A program made the position numbers and the translations under genes. The notes beneath the pieces are model-generated. The model had not been told where the DNA came from. It ran no database searches and saw only the letters and a list, made by a program, of their open reading frames with translations. Positions 5,661-63,443 of a DNA stretch of 64,000 bases are shown here, piece after piece. Source of the DNA: Minisyncoccota bacterium (GTDB lineage Bacteria > Patescibacteriota > Minisyncoccia > Phycocordibacterales > UBA2135); contig JBBDJW010000005.1 in assembly GCA_040879685.1 (NCBI GenBank), positions 21,741 to 85,740 on the forward strand, in the 5' to 3' direction. Position 1 is the first letter of the stretch; every line of letters begins with the position of its first letter.

Positions 5661-5897
5661 AAATAGTCCTTTGATATTCTTTGTAGAGTGTTTTTTATAA
5701 CCATAGAGCGCCCACCAGCTATTTCAAGGCTCTCTTAGAAAGTTTGTCTGGGAAGAGATTGAAGCCAACCCTCCTTCTCGGTGGAAACTAAAACGAAGAT
5801 GATGTATCGCGGGCTAGGTATCTGGAGGCTTTTTCTTTTAAATTTAAACGGCCTAAACCATTGCTTTTTTGAGGACTTTATGTAATACTAGGCAATT

Positions 5898-6156: not shown

Positions 6157-7092
6157 ATGGCGAATAGGCACCTTTCAAGAAGTATTGTAATGCAGACCCT
6201 CTTTGAGTGGGATTTTATGCACTATGATACGACAAAAGCACAAGAAATCCTTGAGCGTAATGCTAAGGAGTTTGCTCCCGGATTGCCTCAAGAGGCACGT
6301 GCGGGAGATTTTTCATTTACAAAGAAACTTCTTGAAGGAATTCTTAAAAAACAAAAAACACTAGACTCTCTCATTGAGAAAGCAGCACCTGAATGGCCTC
6401 TTTCTAAAGTATCTATTGTTGACCGCAACGTACTTCGTATAGGTCTCTACGAACTTCTCTTTGGAGTGAAGGGAGAGGTACCTCCTAAGGTGGCAATTAA
6501 CGAAGCAATTGAACTTGCAAAAACGTTTAGCGGGCTCAATAGCGGAAAGTTTATTAATGGAGTGCTCGGTAGCGTCTATCGTGAGTTAGGTGAACCAGGA
6601 AAAAACGACAAGCCAGTAAAAAAGAACCACAACATTGACCCAGCGAAAATGCCTATTTATAAAAAGGGCGGGGCGGTTATCTACAGTATTCATGAAGGAG
6701 TTGTGCATCTCGCCCTTGTCCACGATATCTTTGGCCGTTGGACATTATCAAAAGGAGGGATTGAAACCATGGGTGACCAAAAGGAATTGACAGTAAAAAA
6801 AATTAAAGAGGAAATCGGTATTACTATTACAATAGAAGATACACTCGGAGAGAATGAATACATCGCCTCTGATCCTCAGGAAGGCAAGGTTCGCAAACAA
6901 GTAACCTACTATCTTGCGAGCGCCTCTTATCAAACGCTTACGCTTGGTGAGACCGGGGGACTTGATGATGTAAGATGGTTTCCACTTGCTGAAGTGCCAT
7001 CGTTGAGGATGTATGATGATATTTTGCCGATTTTAACAAAAGGCATTGAGAAGATAACAAAAAAGAAAAACCGTTCAGAAGAAAAAAAATAA
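6157..7092 (+). CDS. nusB: NusB antitermination factor fused to a C-terminal Nudix-fold-like domain with a degenerate Nudix box
   Basis: ATG at 6157 preceded by GGGAAGAGGGAG. The N-terminal 145 aa match NusB: [30 protein letters not shown] versus E. coli [29 protein letters not shown]. The C-terminal 165 aa look like a Nudix fold: [30 protein letters not shown] and [13 protein letters not shown]. The frame is continuous. The ORF-track start at 5974 overlaps rpmF and is rejected. Confidence 0.75.
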   Translation: [311 protein letters not shown]

Positions 7093-12419: not shown

Positions 12420-13811
12420 TTAAAGTTTTTTTGTTATCTCTTGACCTTCGGGCGTGTCTTTCACAGAATATCCCGCTTTTTCTATTTTTTTGCGAAGTGA
12501 ATCAGAGCGTGCCCAATCTTCTTCTTCACGTGCTCCCTTTCTCTCATCTGCGAGAACTTCAACGTGAGCGGGGAGAGGTTCTTTTTTGAGATCAGCAAAC
12601 CCAAGTCCAAAAACTCTATCAAAGTCTTTTAACAACTCTTTTTTTTCTTTTTCACCCAATCCATCATCTTTTACTATAATCCAAAGAAGAGCAAGAGCCC
12701 CCGGGGCATCAATGTCATCCTCAATATACTCTTTAAATCTATCTCCATATTCTTTTGCTCTTTCTTCTCCTCGAGAATCAGTTTCATCAAGTGAAAGATA
12801 GAACAGAGAGAGTTTTGAAAGACTACGTGATGCTCCCTCAAGCGCCTCCCATGTAAAATTAATAAGAGTACGGTAGTGGGCACCAAGAAGTAAGTAGCGA
12901 TAGGCAAGAGGAGAGATTCCTTTCTCACTCACATCAAAAAGTGTAGTAAAATTTCCTAATGATTTAGACATCTTTTCATTTTCTATCAAAAGATGGTTAT
13001 TATGCATAAAGTAACGAACAAATGTTTTCCCCGTTGCGGCCTCTGATTGGGCAACTTCATTGGTGTGATGTGTTGGAATATGATCTATACCACTTGTGTG
13101 AATATCTAATGTCTCACCAAGGTACTTCATTGCCATCGCTGAACACTCAGTATGCCACCCTGGAAACCCTTTCCCCCAAGGAGAATCCCATTCTTGTGCG
13201 CGGTGTGTATCCTTTTTTGAAAATTTCCAAAGTGCAAAATCTGTTGGGTATTTTTTTTCGGGATTTTTTTCTATACGTGCGCCCTCACGTAATCCAGAAA
13301 TATTAAGTCTGGCAAGTTTCCCATAGTCGGGGAATTTGCTCGTATTAAAATAAACACCATCACGTGTGGTATAGACATACCCTCTTTGCTCCAACTTTTT
13401 AATAAGAGCAATCTGTTCAGGAACATGTTCTGATGCTTTCGGAAATTCGGTACCCTTTGTTTTAATGTTGAGTGCGGCAAGGTCTTTTTTAAAACTCTCC
13501 ATATAAAACGTAGCTATCTCTTGTGGCGTTTTCTTTTCTTTAACAGCCTTTTGCAAAACCTTGTCTTCTCCTTCATCCGCGTCGGTTGTGAGATGCCCGA
13601 CATCTGTTATGTTGATAATTTGCGAGACCTTAAAACCTTCATATTCAAATATTCTGCGAAGTGTGTCGGCAAAGATATAGGCACGAAGATTCCCAAGATG
13701 AACAAAGTCATATACTGTTGGTCCGCAATGATACATAGAAACGTGTCCTGTGTTACGTGCGACAAAGAGCTCCTTGGTGCGTGTTTTAGTATTGTAAAGA
13801 TAAAGAGACAT
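12420..13811 (-). CDS. cysS: cysteinyl-tRNA synthetase
   Basis: MYHCGPTVYDFVHLGN (HIGH region), KMSKSLGN and the CysRS anticodon-binding domain. Confidence 0.9.
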   Translation of the reverse strand: MSLYLYNTKTRTKELFVARNTGHVSMYHCGPTVYDFVHLGNLRAYIFADTLRRIFEYEGFKVSQIINITDVGHLTTDADEGEDKVLQKAVKEKKTPQEIATFYMESFKKDLAALNIKTKGTEFPKASEHVPEQIALIKKLEQRGYVYTTRDGVYFNTSKFPDYGKLARLNISGLREGARIEKNPEKKYPTDFALWKFSKKDTHRAQEWDSPWGKGFPGWHTECSAMAMKYLGETLDIHTSGIDHIPTHHTNEVAQSEAATGKTFVRYFMHNNHLLIENEKMSKSLGNFTTLFDVSEKGISPLAYRYLLLGAHYRTLINFTWEALEGASRSLSKLSLFYLSLDETDSRGEERAKEYGDRFKEYIEDDIDAPGALALLWIIVKDDGLGEKEKKELLKDFDRVFGLGFADLKKEPLPAHVEVLADERKGAREEEDWARSDSLRKKIEKAGYSVKDTPEGQEITKKL

Positions 13812-24799: not shown

Positions 24800-24820
24800 G
24801 TCAAAAGCTTAGCTTTTGAC
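24800..24820. repeat. 21-bp palindromic hairpin GTCAAAAGCTTAGCTTTTGAC, copy 1
   Basis: Perfect 9-bp arms. An identical element in reverse-complement orientation lies at 25048-25068. Confidence 0.7.
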
Positions 24821-25047
24821 AATGGGGGCAGGAAATTATAAAACCGTCAAATTGTGCACTATCCAATGTTGAAATTAATTATGGAACTCACCCCAAGAGG
24901 AAAAACTTCTGGGAGAGGTATGCTTCTAAAACACCTCTGTAGAGCTGTTTTAGAGACTATTTTAGAGAAAGAATTTCTTCATAATTATATATTTGATGCT
25001 ATAGCATTAAATATATAATTTCCTCCGCCGAGAAATTATGCCTAAGT

Positions 25048-25068
25048 GTCAAAAGCTAAGCTTTTGAC
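25048..25068. repeat. 21-bp palindromic hairpin GTCAAAAGCTAAGCTTTTGAC, copy 2, the reverse complement of copy 1
   Basis: Exact reverse complement of 24800-24820. The two bracket about 230 bp of non-coding DNA. Confidence 0.7.
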
Positions 25069-25161
25069 ACTACGGGAATAAAATCAAAAAACTGTTTCGC
25101 CTACTGCGCGACGGTTTTTTATTCCTATAGCAACCTACAGCAATGGTAATAATATCTTTTT

Positions 25162-29783: not shown

Positions 29784-30066
29784 AAGATAACTAAATAACC
29801 AATGAAAATAACTTAAATTCTTATCTTGAATAAAATCCAGATTCTCATTGAAGTGATTGTATGTGTTCTAGTTGCTGGCGTTTACCTATCCGTTTTTACT
29901 TACTTGAAAGATCTTTTTCATATCAAGGTGTATTTAAATAAATTATAAACACACTATAGCGGTCGCCATCGTCACGTACAATTTCCATACCGCGCGCTCC
30001 GCGTTTGATACTATGCACAACCGATCCGATTTCGTATAGTTCAATTCGCAGAGCATTATTATTTAC

Positions 30067-30119
30067 ACACAAGTCTGACTTGTGTATATGTGGTATTTAT
30101 ACACAAGTCAGACTTGTGT
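30067..30119. repeat. tandem pair of 19-bp palindromes, ACACAAGTCTGACTTGTGT at 30067-30085 and ACACAAGTCAGACTTGTGT at 30101-30119. Each is followed by (R)TATGTGG.
   Basis: Seen directly in the sequence. The same palindrome also occurs at 17632-17650. Confidence 0.7.
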
Positions 30120-30178
30120 GTATGTGGCGGTCAGAGTTTTGGTGGTGATCAGTGAAGAGATAAAGCCCCTTTGCAAAT

Positions 30179-41164: not shown

Positions 41165-41190
41165 AAACGGCTCACTATAGTGAGCCGTTT
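41165..41190. terminator. perfect 11-bp-stem hairpin AAACGGCTCACtataGTGAGCCGTTT between rpmE and prfA. No adjacent U-run on the minus strand, so it may be an RNA-processing or stability element rather than a terminator.
   Basis: Seen in the sequence. On the plus strand a T-run follows about 10 nt later. Confidence 0.35.
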
Positions 41191-47262: not shown

Positions 47263-47288
47263 ATCAATCTTACGTAGATAAGATTGAT
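47263..47288. repeat. hairpin ATCAATCTTAcgtagaTAAGATTGAT (10-bp stem), about 40 nt upstream of the 46765-47223 gene start
   Basis: Perfect inverted repeat seen in the sequence. Confidence 0.6.
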
Positions 47289-47362
47289 CCCATCTAGTAG
47301 TTTAATAATACCACCTCCTTTTGTAATGTACACCTCTAGGGTGAAAGGTTATACACAAATGG

Positions 47363-47431
47363 AAAATACCACCCGAAGGTGGTATTTTCCAGTGTACTTA
47401 TTTTATGCCCGGAGGCAAAAAATAAGTACAC
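47363..47431. repeat. two adjacent perfect hairpins with A/T flanks: AAAATACCACCcgaaGGTGGTATTTT (47363-47388) and GTGTACTTATTTT-N14-AAAATAAGTACAC (47392-47431)
   Basis: Seen directly. These are terminator-like, but no gene is immediately upstream on either strand. Confidence 0.6.
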
Positions 47432-47562
47432 CATGAGTATATAGATAGGATCTCTCTGTGTCAAATATAAAATCTTAAACCTGTGGAAAACTAAAAAATC
47501 CCCTTATTTTGCAGTAATTATTTCTTGTTGTTTAAACATTAAGTGTTGAGCATTTTTAAGTT

Positions 47563-47603
47563 AAAACCACCAGAATGGTGCCATTCTGGTGGTTTTTGAT
47601 TTT
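47563..47603. terminator. bidirectional intrinsic terminator aaaaCCACCAGAATGGtgCCATTCTGGTGGtttttgattttt
   Basis: 12-bp GC-rich stem with an A-run upstream and a T-run downstream. Confidence 0.7.
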
Positions 47604-50130: not shown

Positions 50131-50165
50131 TTTTCAAAGACACCTTTTGGTGTCTTTATTTTTTG
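50131..50165. terminator. bidirectional terminator ttttttcAAAGACACCttttGGTGTCTTTattttttg between the small plus-strand gene and uvrA
   Basis: 9-bp stem with T-runs on both sides. Overlaps the uvrA stop codon. Confidence 0.75.
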
Positions 50166-52810
50166 CGAATGGTTTTCTTATTTCTCTTTATTGCCTTTTC
50201 ATCAAGGACTTTTTTTAAATACCTTCCCGTAAGAGAATTTTTATCCTGTACCAGTGCTTCAGGAGTGCCTTGCGCGACCACCTTACCTCCTTTTTCTCCT
50301 CCAGAAGGACCAAAGTCAATAATATAATCAGCGCTTTTAATAATATCCATATTATGCTCAATCATCAAAACAGAATTGCCACGCGAAATGAGTTTTTGAA
50401 GTATTTCAATCAATTTTTTCACATCCTCATAATGAAGCCCTACGGTGGGCTCATCCAAGATATAAAGCGTCTTACTTGTAAGCGGACGATATAATTCTGA
50501 GGCAATCTTGACTCTCTGTGCCTCCCCTCCGGAGAGGGTCGTGGCAGGTTGGCCAAGTTCAAGATAACCAAGTCCCACCTCATCTAAGGTACTGAGACGG
50601 TCATAAATTGCTGGAATATCCTTGAAAAAAGAGAGGCTCTCCTCAACAGTCATTTTTAAACAATCATAAATTGATTTCCCTTTATATTTTACTTCAAGCG
50701 TCTCCTTTTGAAATCGTTTTCCTCCACACACATCACATGAGACATACACAGTCGGCAAAAAGTGCATTTCCACAGCAATAACTCCATTCCCCATACATGC
50801 CTCACACCTTCCTCCTTTCACATTAAACGAGAATCTCCCCGGCTTCCACCCTCGTTGGCGCGCCTCACTGGTGAGCGCAAAAAGATCTCTCATATGCGTA
50901 AAGGTGCCGGTGTACGTTGCCGGATTTGAACGAGGTGTTCTCCCAATGGGAGTTTGGTCAATCAAAGAAGTTCTGTTAATGTATTCTGCGCCTGTAAACG
51001 ATGTGCAGTTATAAACGGCGGGGTTATTTCTTTTTCGTTCAAATTTACTTTGTAGGTTTTTGTAAATAATCTCATAAACAAAGGATGATTTGCCTGAACC
51101 GGAGACGCCCGTCACTACACACATCCTCCCAAGTGGCACGGTAACATTTAGTTTTGTGATGTTAAAGACCTCTCCACCACGCACCTTAAGCGAGCCACGC
51201 TCTTCGCAACGACGCTTCTCCGGCAAAGGAACTTCCCTCTCCCCACGCAAATAATCAAGCGTCAATGATTGATACTTCTTTTTGTCTTTCAGCGCTGTTT
51301 CAAGTTCCTCTGAAACCATAACCTCCCCACCGTGAATACCGGCGGCAGGGCCAATGTCAACGATATAATCAGCAGAAAAAATAGTATCTTCATCATGCTC
51401 AACAACAATAATTGTGTTGCCGATATCACGTAAATCCTGCAGTGTTGCAATTAAACGGTCATTGTCGGAAGGATGAAGACCGATGGTCGGCTCATCCAAG
51501 ACATAGAGCGCGCCAACAAGGCGTGAGCCTAATTGTGAAGCAAGCCTCATGCGCTGTGCCTCACCGCCAGAGAGTGTATTTGCCCGCCTATTGAGCGTTA
51601 GATATTCAATGCCGACATTGATCATAAAAGAAAGGCGGCTGGTTATCTCGCGAATCACCATATTTGAAATTTCCTGTTCTGTCTCAGAAAGTTTTACTTT
51701 TTGGAAAAATTCGGTTGCGTTTTCAATAGAAAGTCCCACAAGGTCAACAATGTTTATTCCTCCATCTTGAGGCCCGGCACCAAGATAGACATGGAGTGCT
51801 TCTTTACGAAGTCGCGCACCCTGACATTCTGGGCATACTTCAACACCATTAAAAAAACGTGTTCCTAGTCCATTACATTCCGGACATGCGCCGGCAGGAG
51901 AGTTAAATGAAAAAAGCCGTGGCTCTATTTCAGGATATGAAAAGCCATCATACGGACACATAAATTTCGCACTCACAAGACGTTCTTTACTCGCCCCTCC
52001 CACACCTCCTTCTGGAATCTCAAAACGTATAAGCCCGTCGGTATGATGAAGCGCCCTCTCCAGCGCGTCAGAGAGCCGCTCACGCGCTGCATTTTTGTTG
52101 TCCTGAAATTCACTAATATAAAGCTCATCAACCACCACATCAATATCATGCTTTTTATTTTTATTCATCTCAATTCGTTCACGAAGTGCTTTCATGACGC
52201 CATCAATTCTAACTGTGCTATACCCTTTATCAAGTAAGTCATAGAGGAGTTGGTAATACTCCCCCTTTCGCCCCACAACAACAGGAGCGAAAATTCTCAC
52301 CTTCATAGCGTCTACAGCAACGCCGAGCACCTTCTTTGATTTTTGTTTTTTAGAAAGAGTAAGAACTTCTTCTGTAATAAGGTTTATAATTTCTTCATTT
52401 GAAAGCTTTTTAATTTCTCTGCCACACTCCAAACAGTGCGGTCTGCCGATGCGCGCATAAAGCACTCGCAGATAATCGTATATCTCCGTGATGGTGGCAA
52501 CGGTTGAGCGAGGATTTGATGAGGCCGATTTTTGGTCAATAGAAATTGCCGGTGAGAGTCCTGAAATTTCATCAACATCCGGCTTCTGCATTTGGCGTAG
52601 GAATTGTCGGGCATATGACGAAAGAGACTCAACATAGCGCCTCTGCCCCTCTGCAAAGATGGTGTCAAAAGCAAGTGATGACTTGCCCGAACCGGAAAGA
52701 CCTGTGAAAACAATCATTTTTTCGCGCGGAATCTCCACGGTGATATTCTTTAAGTTATGAGTTCGCGCACCCTTCACAACTATTTTTCCTTTATTATTTT
52801 TTTTCTCCAT
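50156..52810 (-). CDS. uvrA: excinuclease ABC subunit A
   Basis: Two ABC modules: [28 protein letters not shown], zinc fingers and LSGGE signatures. Start at MEKKNNKG (52810); the ORF-track extension to 52948 is rejected. Confidence 0.93.
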
Positions 52811-52830
52811 ACTACCTAAAAACACAAGAG

Positions 52831-52860
52831 CACTCCCCCGTCGTGTCCGTAGGGGGAGTG
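52831..52860 (-). promoter_or_regulatory. hairpin CACTCCCCC-N12-GGGGGAGTG immediately upstream of the uvrA ribosome-binding site (AGGUAG) and start codon; a possible attenuator or leader structure
   Basis: On the minus strand the stem is followed by CUCUUGUGUUUUUAGGUAGU-AUG. Confidence 0.4.
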
Positions 52861-52943
52861 TGTCTTTCTTTAATACTAGAAACCTACCATGAAATACCCC
52901 TAAGTACAACTCGCAGTAAACCTTTGTGCTTTCCATGGGATTA

Positions 52944-53079
52944 TGCAAAGAAAAAGCCGCGTCTTAAAAAGAGCGGCTTATATGGCGTTAGATTGAATCC
53001 CGGAGAAGCTCCGGTCTGCTGTAGTCCTTAGACCTTTGGTACAAGTATTAGACCCGCCTTCCGAAGTTCAATCTAACAA
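52944..53079 (-). ncRNA. candidate small RNA or structured leader of about 135 nt. 5' and 3' ends pair over 11 bp (GUUAGAUUGAA / UUCAAUCUAAC), there are internal hairpins, and it ends in an intrinsic terminator. Its identity is unknown.
   Basis: Minus strand, starting at the TSS: TTGCTT-N16-TATACT promoter (plus coordinates 53084-53111), then gttagattgaa (pairs with 52987-52997), CCGGAG/CTCCGG and GGUCU/AGACC hairpins, then terminator AAGCCGC-N12-GCGGCTT + UUUUUCUUU (52944-52979). No ORF. Not tRNA-like. Confidence 0.45.
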
Positions 53080-53083
53080 AAGC

Positions 53084-53111
53084 AGTATAGCAGATGGATA
53101 GTTTTAAGCAA
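53084..53111 (-). promoter_or_regulatory. sigma70-like promoter TTGCTT-N16-TATACT driving the candidate sRNA/leader
   Basis: Read on the minus strand. Confidence 0.4.
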
Positions 53112-53320
53112 CCCCATCTATGACCGCAGGTACTTTTGCACTCCGCTGGTAATTTCTCATAGTGTAGTAGTTTTCCAACCGGTGTCAGCTTGTTCCGTAT
53201 TGTAGAAGAGGAGCCACTACATACTATAGAGTATATGTGTTTATTACTTATAACGATAAGAACCTATACCCCATACTACGCTATAGCGTATAATAGGGTA
53301 TAGGTAGTAACTCAATAGAG

Positions 53321-53373
53321 GTGGTTATTAAAATATGGACATCGGATGTCCATATTTTAATAACCCAACCACC
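53321..53373. terminator. large hairpin/terminator downstream of uvrB. The core is a perfect palindrome AAAATATGGACATCgGATGTCCATATTTT (53330-53358), extended by GGTGGTTATT / AATAACC-CAA-CCACC.
   Basis: Seen directly. A/T flanks. 15 nt past the uvrB stop. Confidence 0.7.
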
Positions 53374-53388
53374 TAAAGACTAAGGGCT

Positions 53389-55410
53389 TCATGACTTCTC
53401 TTGGAGAGCAAGAATCTCATCACGCAGAAGTGCTGCCGTCTCAAAGTCTAAAATCTTAACCGCTTCGTTCATCTGACGCTCTTTTTCTTTGATGAGCTTC
53501 TTGGGTGCCCTTTTATAGAGATCTCGGTCAACTTCAAGAAGCGTTTTGAGCGCTCGCTCATGCTCGCTTTCAAGCTGTTGTGTAATATCATTAATCGCCT
53601 TCTTGATACCTTGCGGAGTAATGCCGTGTTTTTTATTGTATGCTTCTTGAATTTCTCGTCTACGCTGTGTCTCATCAAGCGCTCGTTGCATAGAGCCTGT
53701 TATCTTATCGGCATAGAGAATCACTTTTCCATTGATATTACGCGCCGCACGGCCAATGGTCTGAATGAGAGATGTCTCGCTCCGTAAAAATCCCTCTTTA
53801 TCAGCATCCAGAATCCCAATAAGAGAAACCTCCGGCAAATCCAGTCCTTCCCGCAAAAGATTCACTCCCACAAGACAATCAAACACCCCCCTTCTAAAAT
53901 CAGTAAGTATTTTTATTCGTTCAATTGTTTTGACATCGCTGTGCACAAACTCCGCCTTCACACCCTTTTCATTAAGGTAAGTTGTCAAATCTTCTGCCAT
54001 GCGCTTGGTAAGCGTTGTTACCATCGTACGATCTCCCTTTTTCACCACGCGCACTGCCTTGTCAATAAAGTCATGAATCTGCCCTTTATACTCACCCTTT
54101 TCAATAACTCCACAAACGACAAGCTCGGGGTCCAAAAGCCCCGTAGGGCGTATCACCTGCTCAACAATGTGCATCGGATCGGTGTTTTCTCTTTCATATG
54201 CTCCGGGAGTTGCCGAAGTGTAGAGTCGTTGCCCCACACGTTCCTCAAATTCATAAAATTTCAAAGGACGGTTATCAAGCGCTGAAGGAAGTCTGAAACC
54301 ATGTTCTACTAAATTTTTCTTTCGTGAAGCATCTCCTACATGCATACCCGCAAGCTGAGGGATGCTAACATGAGACTCATCTATAATGGTCAAGAAATCC
54401 GCGCTTCCGTCCTTGTTTCTAGGAAAGTATGAAAGAAGTGTATCGGGCGCTTCGCCTTTTTTCTTGCCAGAGAGATGTCGTGAATAATTTTCAATGCCGT
54501 TACAATACCCAACTTCACGAAGAAGTGTGATGTCGCCTTTTGTTCTGCGTACAAGTCTGTCTGCCTCAAGAATTTTGCCCATATCCTGAAGCTCTTTTAC
54601 TCTTTGTTTTAGTTCGGCTTGTATGTTTTTAATCGCTCCCTCCAATCGTTCTTTGTTAGTAACAAAATGCTTTGCCGGAAAAAGATAATATATATCAACT
54701 TCTTCAAGTATGGTGTTGCTTACAGGATCAATCTTCACAATGCGAGAAACCTCATCTCCATCAAGCTCAACGCGAAATGTCTGCCTCACATTAACCGGCA
54801 TAATCTCAACCACGTTGCCGATAACCCGAAAGTATCCCGGAGTAAGATCAGCTGGCGTCCTTTCAAAATACAAAGAAACGAGGAGCCTTAAAAATTCCTT
54901 TCTACTTGCCTTCATTCCTTTTTTAATCTCCAAGTGCTCTTTTCTATACTCATCAGGACTTCCTAATCCATAGATTGCAGAGACAGAAGCAACCACAATA
55001 ACATCACGTCTGCTTAAAAGGTCTTGCGTTGTCGCGTGCCGAAGGCGGTCAATCTCTTCATTGACCTGTGCTTCTTTTTCAATATAGGTGTCTGAAATAG
55101 GAACATACGCCTCCGGTTGGTAATAATCATAATACGAAACGAAATAGTGCACCGCATTATTTGGAAAAAAATCTCGGTATTCCTGTACAAGCTGAGCGGC
55201 AAGCGTCTTATTGTGAGCAATGATAAGCGTTGGCTTATTTATACGCTCAATAATATTTGCCGCCGTAAATGTCTTACCTGAACCCGTCACACCCAAAAGC
55301 GTCTGGTGCTTTACACCGGTTTTAATGCCACGATACAGTGCCTCAATCGCCTTAGGCTGGTCGCCTTCCGGTTTGTAGTGCGAGGAAAGTTCTAGATTTT
55401 TTTGCGCCAT
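53389..55410 (-). CDS. uvrB: excinuclease ABC subunit B
   Basis: LLGVTGSGKTFTAANIIERINKPTLIIAHNKTLAAQL, helicase motifs and a UVR domain at the C-terminus. 673 aa. Confidence 0.95.
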   Translation of the reverse strand: MAQKNLELSSHYKPEGDQPKAIEALYRGIKTGVKHQTLLGVTGSGKTFTAANIIERINKPTLIIAHNKTLAAQLVQEYRDFFPNNAVHYFVSYYDYYQPEAYVPISDTYIEKEAQVNEEIDRLRHATTQDLLSRRDVIVVASVSAIYGLGSPDEYRKEHLEIKKGMKASRKEFLRLLVSLYFERTPADLTPGYFRVIGNVVEIMPVNVRQTFRVELDGDEVSRIVKIDPVSNTILEEVDIYYLFPAKHFVTNKERLEGAIKNIQAELKQRVKELQDMGKILEADRLVRRTKGDITLLREVGYCNGIENYSRHLSGKKKGEAPDTLLSYFPRNKDGSADFLTIIDESHVSIPQLAGMHVGDASRKKNLVEHGFRLPSALDNRPLKFYEFEERVGQRLYTSATPGAYERENTDPMHIVEQVIRPTGLLDPELVVCGVIEKGEYKGQIHDFIDKAVRVVKKGDRTMVTTLTKRMAEDLTTYLNEKGVKAEFVHSDVKTIERIKILTDFRRGVFDCLVGVNLLREGLDLPEVSLIGILDADKEGFLRSETSLIQTIGRAARNINGKVILYADKITGSMQRALDETQRRREIQEAYNKKHGITPQGIKKAINDITQQLESEHERALKTLLEVDRDLYKRAPKKLIKEKERQMNEAVKILDFETAALLRDEILALQEKS

Positions 55411-55458
55411 AGAAATGGAGTATAGCGCAAAGAGAGGTTTTATAAAAATGCCTGAACC

Positions 55459-55494
55459 TTTTCCAATACGCCAGACGCCTGGCGTATTGGAAAA
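55459..55494. promoter_or_regulatory. 36-bp perfect palindrome TTTTCCAATACGCCAGacgcCTGGCGTATTGGAAAA just upstream of a putative uvrB promoter (TTTATA-N16-TATACT, then about 8 nt to the ATG)
   Basis: Seen directly. 16-bp perfect arms. 49-84 nt upstream of the uvrB start codon. Confidence 0.5.
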
Positions 55495-55690
55495 TTATGC
55501 AAAGGAGGACTTTACCCCCAGCGCTTGCCCCGCCATCTGGAAATACATACCCGGCAGTAATACAATGTCCAAAATCTGATTTATGACATTGTTTTGAAAT
55601 TTTGGACACTCCTTGTATCATAAAAACATTCAAACATTATTGATAATGTTTAAATGTTTTACTCTCTTCTCTACTACTGCCGACCGACCA

Positions 55691-55849
55691 CCTGCCGGCA
55701 GGCCTTATACACGCTTTCTCCTCACCACTTTACTTTAAAATTATATATTCAGACCTATAGGTCTGAATATATAATTTTCTCTCTCTTCACTCCTTTCTAC
55801 CTGCCGGCAAGCAGACTCCTCCCTCCTCATTCCCTCTCTGCCGGCAAGT
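55691..55849. promoter_or_regulatory. three copies of the palindromic core TGCCGGCA (CCTGCCGGCAGG at 55691-55702, CTGCCGGCAAG at 55801-55811 and 55838-55848) in a CT-rich tract, flanking a 42-bp perfect A/T-flanked palindrome
   Basis: Seen directly in the sequence. Confidence 0.5.
55737..55778. repeat. 42-bp perfect palindrome AAAATTATATATTCAGACCTA|TAGGTCTGAATATATAATTTT (possible bidirectional terminator)
   Basis: Seen directly. Downstream of the trxB and small-ORF transcription unit. Confidence 0.6.
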
Positions 55850-55883
55850 TTACCCTTTATTACACCTATACAAAATACCTATA

Positions 55884-56099
55884 CTAAATCACTCCTATCT
55901 CCAATAGATAACCAGCAACGACAAGCACAACGCCCGACCAGCCGACAAACTGCTCTATCTTCATTGTTGTAAAAACTTTTCGGTCAATTTTATGTTCACG
56001 CAATACGCGATGATGTACCCGAAGCGCGGCATAAGCAATAAAGAGTGTCCCAAGAACCTCAAGAGTAAGTCCCATGTTGCTTGTTATTGCACCTATCAT
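55884..56099 (-). CDS. hypothetical small membrane protein (71 aa, 2 predicted TM segments)
   Basis: Lies immediately downstream of trxB on the same strand. Hydrophobic segments LTLEVLGTLFIAYAAL and GWSGVVLVVAGYLLEIGVI. Uncertain. Confidence 0.35.
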   Translation of the reverse strand: MIGAITSNMGLTLEVLGTLFIAYAALRVHHRVLREHKIDRKVFTTMKIEQFVGWSGVVLVVAGYLLEIGVI

Positions 56100-63092: not shown

Positions 63093-63115
63093 TTCACTAA
63101 AAAGTTATCCACATC

Positions 63116-63154
63116 AATAAACCGCTAAAATCTAAAAGATTTTAGCGGTTTATT
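63116..63154. repeat. 39-bp perfect hairpin/palindrome AATAAACCGCTAAAATCTaaaAGATTTTAGCGGTTTATT upstream of the dcw operon promoter
   Basis: 18-bp perfect arms, seen directly. Confidence 0.6.
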
Positions 63155-63239
63155 GGTTTCTGAGAGTCTCTAGCTTTTCCAAAAGGCATGGTACAAGAGC
63201 GTCTCGGTGCACTTGCAAGGTTGTGCCTTTAAAAGGTTA

Positions 63240-63263
63240 CTTACTTCAGTTAACTGAAGTAAG
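63240..63263. repeat. 24-bp perfect palindrome CTTACTTCAGTTAACTGAAGTAAG
   Basis: Seen directly. Lies in the intergenic region between greA and mraZ. Confidence 0.6.
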
Positions 63264-63443
63264 TCGTCTTTCAAACTTCACTCTCTAAATGCAGGGGTAT
63301 CTTTTTGTCCGAATCATCTCATTTCTTGGAGGTAACCTTGTTTAAAGCCCGACTTTAAAACAAGGTGAGTATTTGGATAATTGTAACGCACCTCTGTACC
63401 GCTCGTATAGTGTGTTAGCAACACATACGCCGAAGGGTGTAGA

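Follow-up and report, generated by a model that had tools for sequence, protein, structure and literature searches.

The DNA examined here, hereafter the window, is a 64,000-nucleotide (nt) stretch of a Minisyncoccota bacterium (GenBank assembly GCA_040879685.1, contig JBBDJW010000005.1, positions 21,741 to 85,740), and our subject is a perfect palindrome upstream of its uvrB gene. The uvrB coding sequence occupies positions 53389-55410 on the minus strand and specifies a protein of 673 amino acids (aa) with the Pfam domains UvrB, UvrB_inter, Helicase_C, ResIII and UVR. It is followed by uvrA at 50156-52948. The UvrB protein is 100% identical to the entry 'MAG: excinuclease ABC subunit UvrB [Candidatus Paceibacterota bacterium]', where MAG stands for metagenome-assembled genome. 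The next-best homologues are just ~71% identical, and the genome thus belongs to the candidate phyla radiation (CPR)/Parcubacteria without a close sequenced relative.

A consensus scan, which is the sole basis for both hexamers, placed a -35-like TTTATA at 55441-55446 on the minus strand, 12 nt downstream of the palindrome edge, and a -10-like TATACT at 55419-55424, 16 nt after TTTATA and 8 nt before the ATG at 55410. The original prediction had set the palindrome beside a uvrB promoter of this form, a plausible assignment given that the same geometry recurs at other genes of the window. At least seven window genes, with starts at 13811, 13963, 24226, 30700, 43224, 46614 and 55410, have (TGn)TATACT/TATAAT placed 6-8 nt ahead of the ATG and lack a Shine-Dalgarno (SD) sequence, and leaderless-type geometry was also seen in the related loci L002, L019 and L021. 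This pattern suggests that leaderless mRNAs with extended -10 promoters may be widespread in this Paceibacterota genome. Since uvrB shares it with the other genes, it is reasonable to suppose that the uvrB mRNA is leaderless as well and would start at or near the ATG.

The palindrome itself lies at 55459-55494, with no strand assigned, and consists of two 16-nt arms, 100% complementary, around a 4-nt loop: TTTTCCAATACGCCAG-ACGC-CTGGCGTATTGGAAAA. Its sequence and a repeat finder both bear out the 36-bp perfect palindrome with 16-bp arms described originally. Counted from the A of the uvrB ATG, it extends from -49 to -84 and is centred at -66.5. A chance origin is ruled out by shuffling: in 20 dinucleotide-preserving shuffles of the window (loop up to 12 nt) the longest perfect arm was 12 nt, and perfect hairpins with arms of 10 nt or more number 15 in the 64-kb window, compared with 0-2 per shuffle (~0.7 expected). 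Folded as RNA within 81 nt of context, the palindrome reaches -35.3 kcal/mol (z = -6.5). Its 16-bp perfect stem provides the G+C-rich stem-loop of a terminator; no U-tract follows the stem on either strand, where the 3' sequences are GGAAAAGG and GGAAAATT, and a terminator scan contains no entry for the palindrome. This bears out the earlier remark that a U-tract is missing on both strands.

Within the window the element stands alone. Neither a 12-mer search nor a covariance search found further copies or half-sites in the 64 kb; the covariance model (R1, built from the 35 family copies introduced below and run with filters off) returned one window match at 50.9 bits, with the runner-up at 14.3 bits (E ~ 1). 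Compared with Rfam 15 at E <= 1, the palindrome had a sole match, STnc490, whose E value of 0.5 makes it meaningless. The 64-kb window contains no Rfam match at the gathering threshold, and no tRNA or transfer-messenger RNA was found in it.

The original prediction took the palindrome for the operator of a dimeric regulator, raised the DNA-damage (SOS) response in connection with uvrB, and remarked that the sequence is unlike classical LexA boxes. The remark is correct, as the palindrome matches neither the CTGT-N8-ACAG nor the GAAC-N4-GTTC consensus. With at most one mismatch allowed, GAAC-N4-GTTC occurs at 19 sites in the window (26 expected), none of them upstream of uvrB or uvrA. A uvrB-specific operator of an SOS-type regulator, with a non-canonical box, would accord with a perfect palindrome standing 12 nt upstream of the uvrB -35 box, and LexA homologues are encoded in related Parcubacteria (L082, 3143-3781; L083). 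The SOS system of Patescibacteria reportedly uses a Gram-positive-like LexA motif. A location upstream of the -35 box is, however, atypical for a LexA-type repressor, and the comparative evidence points the same way. The two nearest relatives, L001 and L002, keep the order pfkB, trxB-like gene, small open reading frame (ORF; orf70), uvrB and uvrA; despite this synteny, neither R1 nor inspection found the palindrome upstream of their uvrB genes. Its place is taken in L001 by an unrelated terminator hairpin with A/T flanks, immediately 5' to a TTGACA box, and in L002 by a divergent gene. The palindrome is also missing upstream of uvrA. Among the ~45 copies found elsewhere, none lies beside a set of DNA-repair genes; the neighbours include genes for thioredoxin, ychF, HIT, radC, TspO, transporters and dnaK. 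The two checks proposed with the original prediction, a search for copies near other repair genes (here in the 64-kb window and at the other loci with the motif) and a comparison of related uvrB loci (L001 and L002), both turned out negative. Given the single copy in the window and the absence from the relatives' uvrB loci, we consider an operator dedicated to uvrB or to the SOS response extremely improbable. A perfect palindrome before uvrB is here no evidence of a novel SOS box, and a tempting mis-annotation can be corrected. The more general idea of an operator for a dimeric regulator has fared better: the half-sites are conserved, the centre varies, and at other loci the motif is tightly linked to a winged-helix gene.

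Judging from its sequence, the window palindrome is one copy of an apparently undescribed element found across Parcubacteria/Paceibacterota. The family shares a 24-bp core, AATACGCC-NN-NCGN-NN-GGCGTATT, and was found at ~45 loci of Paceibacterota/Parcubacteria genomes and groundwater metagenomes, in unrelated gene contexts. In the window the core reads AATACGCCAG-ACGC-CTGGCGTATT (55465-55488) and is flanked on its two sides by TTTTCC and GGAAAA. All family statistics refer to loci chosen by exact pattern or by a linked protein, and at the pattern-selected loci the gene calls are our own crude ORF calls. Scanning one genome per species with the exact pattern yielded 30 loci, most of them ordinary terminators with a chance 10-mer, A-tract/T-tract flanks and other loops; a 4-nt GC-rich loop is common to three, L007 and L019 (Paceibacterota) and L021 (an unclassified 'bacterium' MAG). 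The scan of metagenome contigs yielded 48 loci, of which ~25 are CPR-type contigs of low GC that share the core within otherwise unrelated flanks. The motif is also carried by eight loci that were fetched through the linked protein and that come from Yanofsky-, Giovannoni-, Niyogi-, Doudna- and Wolfe-bacteria. Copies number four within 20 kb in L083, three in L086, two each in L082, L063, L078, L050 and L018, and one each in L070 and L077, which share one contig; density thus ranges from 1 per 64 kb in the window up to 4 per 20 kb in L083.

An alignment of 35 copies including that of the window (A2) shows how uneven conservation is along the element. The outer eight positions of each arm (AATACGCC/GGCGTATT) are invariant or at least 90% conserved, except for one pair that is A-T in 29/35, and the central CG is kept in at least 90%. 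Arm positions 9-10, the two loop-flanking bases and the outer flanks are variable. A G-R-R-AAAA flank is common and one-sided, always 3' in the direction of the local genes; the window copy has it on both sides. Taken singly, the words AATACGCC and GGCGTATT occur at counts near Markov expectation and in ordinary coding context. A viral control, in which a looser pattern was run against 2.9 million contigs, gave eight matches, none with the family features; a phage or viral origin was rejected, as IMG/VR yielded no family members by DNA pattern or by protein. A literature search met the 10-mers only as primers in unrelated papers and found no paper on Parcubacteria intergenic palindromes.

The most informative feature of the family is a gene. 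In L019 and L021 the motif is found a few nt past the stop codon of a ~110-aa ORF that encodes an N-terminal hydrophobic helix, basic residues and then a winged helix-turn-helix (Pfam HTH_24, HTH_11, MarR). We refer to this protein as TM-wHTH, for its transmembrane (TM) and winged helix-turn-helix (wHTH) parts. Its homologues form 106 clusters from many Parcubacteria lineages, are ~110-135 aa long and have no functional name, the best being 'HTH domain-containing protein'. The recognition helix (SSRTAVRYL; SSRTAVRYLDELE) and the wing (VEQVGK-GH-VTYRLK) are near-invariant. An AlphaFold (AF2) model with a mean confidence (pLDDT) of 82.6 predicts a TM helix, a long helix and the wHTH, and its top PDB matches are CadC, ZitR, a MarR-operator complex, HlyU, Z-alpha and AspA, the archaeal pNOB8 centromere binder. 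In 15/15 independent loci the motif lies downstream of the TM-wHTH gene within ~400 nt, and in 13 of these within 70 nt; in the remaining two it stands one small ArsR-like gene further on. Among pattern-selected copies, about one third adjoin a TM-wHTH gene. Among the lineages examined, P0220 alone departs from this recognition helix (SRATVVRYL), and its palindrome, in the same place, is changed symmetrically in both arms: AATGCCTCAG-GCGC-TTGAGTCATT-GAAA.

A second palindrome ties the uvrB upstream region to these regulator loci. It lies at 55623-55660, with no strand assigned, and reads AAAACATTCAAACATTAT-TG-ATAATGTTTAAATGTTTT, with 18-nt arms and tandem AACATT half-sites. We assign it to a further family, hairpinX (AACATTCCAACATTCTGCAGAATGTTGGAATGTT; AACATTC half-sites), on the basis of local alignment scores of 53 and 48 to L081 and L082, against 24 +/- 3.8 for shuffles. 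HairpinX occurs in L021, L040, L081, L082, L086 and L087. In the last four it directly precedes the AATACGCC motif; in L021 and L040 it stands 13 nt upstream of the wHTH start, over a likely leaderless promoter, and in L081 and L082 it is also found before the ArsR-like gene. HairpinX is likely a second operator family. Upstream of uvrB both family palindromes are present in the order and orientation seen at the regulator loci, with the hairpinX copy 165 bp further upstream, which suggests that this region may be wired to a TM-wHTH/ArsR-like regulator pair rather than to LexA. The hairpinX palindrome of the window overlaps promoter-like hexamers on both strands and could control transcription entering the uvrB upstream region. 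The gap upstream of uvrB measures 473 bp in the window and ~100 bp in L001, and the palindrome-rich excess of ~370 bp contains both family palindromes and no gene. We rejected a decayed wHTH/ArsR-like pseudogene in the 128-nt spacer between the two palindromes (55495-55622, minus strand), for which we found no significant DNA or protein similarity: Smith-Waterman comparisons with wHTH and ArsR-like genes gave z <= 2.9, never above the best shuffle, and the sole protein-level signal was a weak tblastn match (E = 0.064) with an internal stop.

Two side observations concern the same gap. The sequence from 55654 to 55900 is strongly strand-biased: the GC skew falls to -0.6, and purines prevail on the minus strand. 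It contains CTGCCGGCA(A/G)G three times, and neither a Pfam-matching ORF nor an Rfam match was found in it. Within the ~370-bp insertion, at 55737-55778, there is also a 42-bp perfect palindrome with zero loop, in which AAAATTATATATTCAGACCTA directly abuts TAGGTCTGAATATATAATTTT.

The reading we favour, with a confidence that falls somewhat short of even, is that the palindrome is a putative double-stranded DNA (dsDNA) recognition site of a dimeric TM-wHTH protein. Binding by the wHTH, recognition on dsDNA and any effect on uvrB transcription are what we infer from the conservation and the gene linkage described above. The 35 aligned copies show the conserved half-sites and variable centre of a dyad-symmetric operator. 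Conserved half-sites with a variable spacer are what a dimer reading the major groove of B-DNA would leave behind, and a perfectly paired RNA stem is seldom read in a sequence-specific way. The conserved stem with free loop-flanking bases thus argues for recognition of DNA half-sites rather than for a protein-bound RNA hairpin, and the match between a near-invariant recognition helix and an invariant half-site supports TM-wHTH as the binder.

At uvrB, the protein would be encoded outside the 64-kb window and would act in trans; a companion hairpinX without a regulator gene in the window is what would be expected of trans-acting sites. The wHTH dimer would occupy DNA one to two helical turns ahead of the -35 box of the putative leaderless uvrB promoter. 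With its centre at -66.5, it would be well placed to activate the promoter, to insulate it from transcription arriving from upstream or to bring it to the membrane, and poorly placed for classical occlusion of the core promoter. Activation, repression, insulation and membrane tethering are all candidate effects. In L087 the motif is likewise centred at -66.5, before a similar TTTATA...TATACC...ATG promoter, and in L021 at -54.5 from a leaderless-type start; elsewhere, copies are found in 3' untranslated regions (UTRs), in the gap of a convergent gene pair or 8 nt ahead of an ATG. As for the symmetric TTTTCC/GGAAAA of the window copy, the usual one-sided GGAAAA flank may have been copied across the dyad by template switching, which is known to perfect palindromes (Ripley-type quasipalindrome correction).

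Several observations weigh against a dsDNA site. Many copies lie just 3' of a gene and not in an obvious promoter. At least one copy, that of L046, stands between convergent genes and ahead of a canonical terminator, an implausible setting for a promoter operator, and in L039, L081 and L082 the ATG follows 8 nt after the stem, which leaves no room for a promoter. The half-site centres are 16 bp apart, not at the usual one- or two-turn spacing. The GRRAAAA flank and a G/G mismatch at the top of the stem are always co-oriented with the local genes, an orientation that a purely symmetric DNA site would not call for. A few copies (L072, L050, L065) have a T-tract and resemble ordinary terminators. 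The co-variation of protein and site comes from a single lineage, and no TM-wHTH homologue is encoded in the 64-kb window, which is part of the genome. Finally, arm positions 9-10 and the flanks stay complementary far above chance, as would also be expected of an RNA or single-stranded DNA hairpin. The palindrome is extended by at least 3 bp, with unrelated sequences, in 12/30 copies (null, 4%); across the 35 copies the covariation score is 0.205 (0.131 when shuffled; 0/500 shuffles reach the observed value), and 75.9% of the cells in the 18-bp helix are paired, against 34-37% with the partner slid.

These points bring in an RNA-level explanation, in which the element is transcribed with the upstream message as a 3' UTR or intercistronic hairpin and serves as a 3'-exonuclease block, a processing site, a terminator without U-tract or an insulator. 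At uvrB it would shield the promoter from read-through out of the 470-nt upstream region, and the conservation would reflect a cognate RNA- or hairpin-binding factor. The great stability of the hairpin noted above is in keeping with this, as are the pairs at positions 9-10, which covary (AG/CT, AC/GT, CC/GG, AA/TT), and the complementary flank extensions, which differ among copies; arm position 10 shows G-C, C-G and A-T pairs, and also G/G mismatches. Copies share the orientation of the genes around them and follow a stop codon at a distance of 4-70 nt. Three of them, at L021, L051 and L046, have a stop codon on one side and a canonical terminator on the other, and so belong to a 3' UTR. Some copies have T-tracts, L001 has its terminator hairpin in the equivalent place upstream of uvrB, and the genome is rich in long perfect intergenic hairpins, including one without a U-tract directly after the uvrB stop codon.

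The details of the element fit an RNA hairpin less well. A U-tract is missing from the window copy and from most others; purine- or A-rich sequence follows them instead, although the genome uses canonical terminators. A near-invariant stem with variable loop-flanking bases is the opposite of what is usual in protein-bound RNA hairpins. The flank extensions are Watson-Crick only and bear no RNA-specific signature: G.U pairs are not enriched (15 G.T, not above 20 A.C). Inversion of the loop is tolerated, as between L040 (105-128) and L051 (97-120), which have identical flanks and loops of ACGC and GCGT, respectively; such flip-flop is typical of hairpin- or cruciform-mediated DNA events. In the window, 390 nt separate the palindrome from the nearest upstream stop codon, and the more terminator-like palindrome at 55737-55778 lies between them. 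The element also has no match to an Rfam family. Taken together, an RNA-level role seems to us rather unlikely, though it is the main rival of the dsDNA site.

The recognition site of TM-wHTH, our preferred reading, has also to be set against recombination. Copies of the motif are found around defence islands. In 6/8 of the loci fetched through the protein, such an island ends, at its 3' edge, with a co-oriented TM-wHTH gene (L081, L082, L085, L086, L087 and L089, at locus positions ~10001, 7006 or 2083). The islands contain type I/II restriction-modification systems, CBASS, a cyclic-oligonucleotide-based anti-phage signalling system (SMODS-SLATT), GmrSD and SocA-Panacea, and one of them, in L087, a serine recombinase. 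Pairs of motifs in the same orientation bracket islands in L082 (2369/10703), L086 (906/10393) and L083 (3509/10346). The TM-wHTH edge looks like a conserved hotspot of island integration in Parcubacteria.

The element could accordingly be read as a repeat of the repetitive extragenic palindrome (REP) kind or a recombination repeat, spread or maintained by hairpin-specific transposition, site-specific recombination at island boundaries or palindrome growth through template switching. The window copy and its hairpinX companion would then be the scar or empty landing site of a wHTH/ArsR-like/defence-island cassette. This would account for many copies at non-homologous loci, almost all of them extragenic, for the bracketed islands with a wHTH gene at their edge, for the serine recombinase, and for a ~370-bp insertion that holds both palindromes and no gene; loop inversion and perfect Watson-Crick extensions likewise point to hairpin dynamics at the level of DNA. 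However, no REP-associated tyrosine (RAYT)/IS200-type (Y1) transposase, integron or tyrosine integrase was found among the Pfam-annotated genes of L081-L089, and the aligned copies show no GTAG/CGTC head, no target-site duplications and no GTTRRRY attC core. Copy number is low (one in the window). REP families are normally species-specific, and the core of the motif is kept across class-level lineages. Nor does the window hold a remnant of a regulator gene, and viral contigs contain no family members. We regard a REP-like or recombination origin as decidedly improbable.

In a broader version of the TM-wHTH reading, the AATACGCC-N8-GGCGTATT motif and the membrane-anchored wHTH may form a Parcubacteria-wide system of sites and binder rather than a conventional transcription switch. 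Each ~1-Mb chromosome would then have tens of sites, held at the membrane, which would mark or insulate the variable and defence islands or form their recombination boundaries, much like Noc-NBS, RacA-ram or parS or like a cassette-boundary site, with the uvrB copy as one such anchor or boundary. We put this forward as a speculative and quite unlikely proposal. A palindromic element recognised by a protein is of a known kind; the present one is absent from Rfam 15 and from the literature searched. What is new is the combination of a near-invariant core across class-level CPR lineages, a minimal, membrane-anchored wHTH partner, a 'home' copy downstream of the gene, positions at defence-island edges and flanks that extend the hairpin. 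CPR bacteria are uncultivated and have tiny genomes, and to our knowledge almost nothing is known of their gene regulation or chromosome organisation. The pairing of a near-invariant 24-bp core with one small membrane-anchored DNA-binding protein offers a concrete and cheaply testable handle on them.

Several known systems invite comparison with the putative site. Like the operators of the MarR and ArsR-SmtB families (MarR-marO, CadC, SmtB 12-2-12), it is built as an inverted repeat whose half-sites are conserved and whose centre varies; the fold of the candidate binder is a wHTH, with CadC, ZitR, the MarR-operator complex and HlyU as best PDB matches, and a copy of the site lies beside the regulator gene. 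Unlike these regulators, the candidate binder is anchored by an N-terminal TM helix and lacks a recognisable sensor domain. Its 'home' site follows the gene instead of occupying the promoter, the two half-site centres are separated by 16 bp, hairpin-extending flanks are present on many copies, and the regulon, if any, has no evident functional theme. The CIRCE element (controlling inverted repeat of chaperone expression), the HrcA operator TTAGCACTC-N9-GAGTGCTAA, resembles the motif in its 8-9-bp inverted repeat, 8-9-bp spacer and deep sequence conservation, and is able to serve both as a DNA site and as an mRNA hairpin. The motif differs from it in sequence, is not confined to heat-shock operons (a copy at dnaK lies downstream, not upstream) and is linked to a protein that is not HrcA.

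Other parallels lie outside transcriptional regulation. REP elements and bacterial interspersed mosaic elements (BIMEs) with their RAYT transposases are likewise extragenic, hairpin-forming and multi-copy, often in 3' UTRs or intercistronic, and sometimes overlap terminators; the motif, in contrast, is low-copy, has no GTAG/CGTC tag and no RAYT gene nearby, and is conserved across classes, not within a species. The ParB-parS, Noc-NBS and RacA-ram pairs and the AspA centromere also use short palindromic sites, a handful to tens per chromosome, with one beside the gene of the binder. Noc and RacA are membrane-associated, and AspA is among the structural matches of TM-wHTH. The present family differs from these in that no ParA/ParB partner was seen and the sites are intergenic and co-oriented with genes. 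DNA uptake sequences (DUS) paired in terminators of Neisseria and Pasteurellaceae share a conserved ~10-nt word in inverted pairs, variable loops and flanks, and an occasional place in terminators. We rejected the DUS and the uptake signal sequence (USS) as identities for the motif: singletons are not over-represented, and the density is about 50-fold lower. An integron attC site was rejected as well, since the aligned copies have no RYYYAAC/GTTRRRY cores and the annotated loci no tyrosine integrase.

Two further candidates were set aside. Distances from motif centre to start codon recur (-20.5 three times, -32.5 and -66.5 twice each, -40.5, -46.5, -54.5, -85.5, -87.5 and others) and follow no single helical phase. 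A sigma-70 promoter inside the motif, with TTGRRA as -35 or TATTGR as -10 hexamer, lacks a consistent partner hexamer across the copies that we read manually. L018, an unclassified MAG, is an exception: its two copies (5821-5842 and 6454-6475) have 2-nt loops and shared longer flanks, and each lies inside a sigma-70-like promoter, with TTGACA over the left arm, a 17-nt spacer and TATTGT over the right arm, ~35 nt upstream of one of two adjacent genes.

Some individual family members deserve mention. The one copy that is not extragenic (L049, 3559-3582) is a full motif in frame inside a tsaD-like ORF, where it codes for GIRQAAGVF in the variable loop that separates the HMEGH and LLVSGGHT motifs; it could be a chance match or an in-frame insertion. 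Short ORF starts like the RadC N-terminus (M-K/R-I-K-D-L-P; MKIKDL...) precede motifs at the left edges of islands by 60-95 nt in L082 (2307-2420) and L086 (101-222 and 811-941), and in L071 the motif stands 28 nt upstream of an intact radC. The starts and the motif may form a larger repeated unit, or the starts may belong to truncated radC genes.

Other parts of the window contain further structures. Downstream of uvrB, a perfect hairpin with 21-nt arms and no U-tract (53323-53365, minus strand) begins 24 nt after the stop codon. The gap between uvrB and uvrA is 440 nt long, and a ~230-nt stretch of it (52950-53200, minus strand) folds at -75 kcal/mol (z = -3.2) and ends with a canonical terminator just before uvrA; it is possibly an unannotated small RNA, with no match in Rfam. 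Two copies of GTCAAAAGCT-N-AGCTTTTGAC, at 24800-24820 and 25045-25071, are spaced by 245 bp within ~500 bp devoid of ORFs. A TTGACA box adjoins them, a small ORF with an SD sequence follows downstream, and the pair resembles a repeated operator. Long perfect palindromes are also present between genes at 30064-30122, 41165-41190, 47263-47596 and 63115-63264; among them are one with 25-nt arms, one with a core like the T7 promoter (GCTCACTATAG), three clustered in one gap and two near the end of the window.

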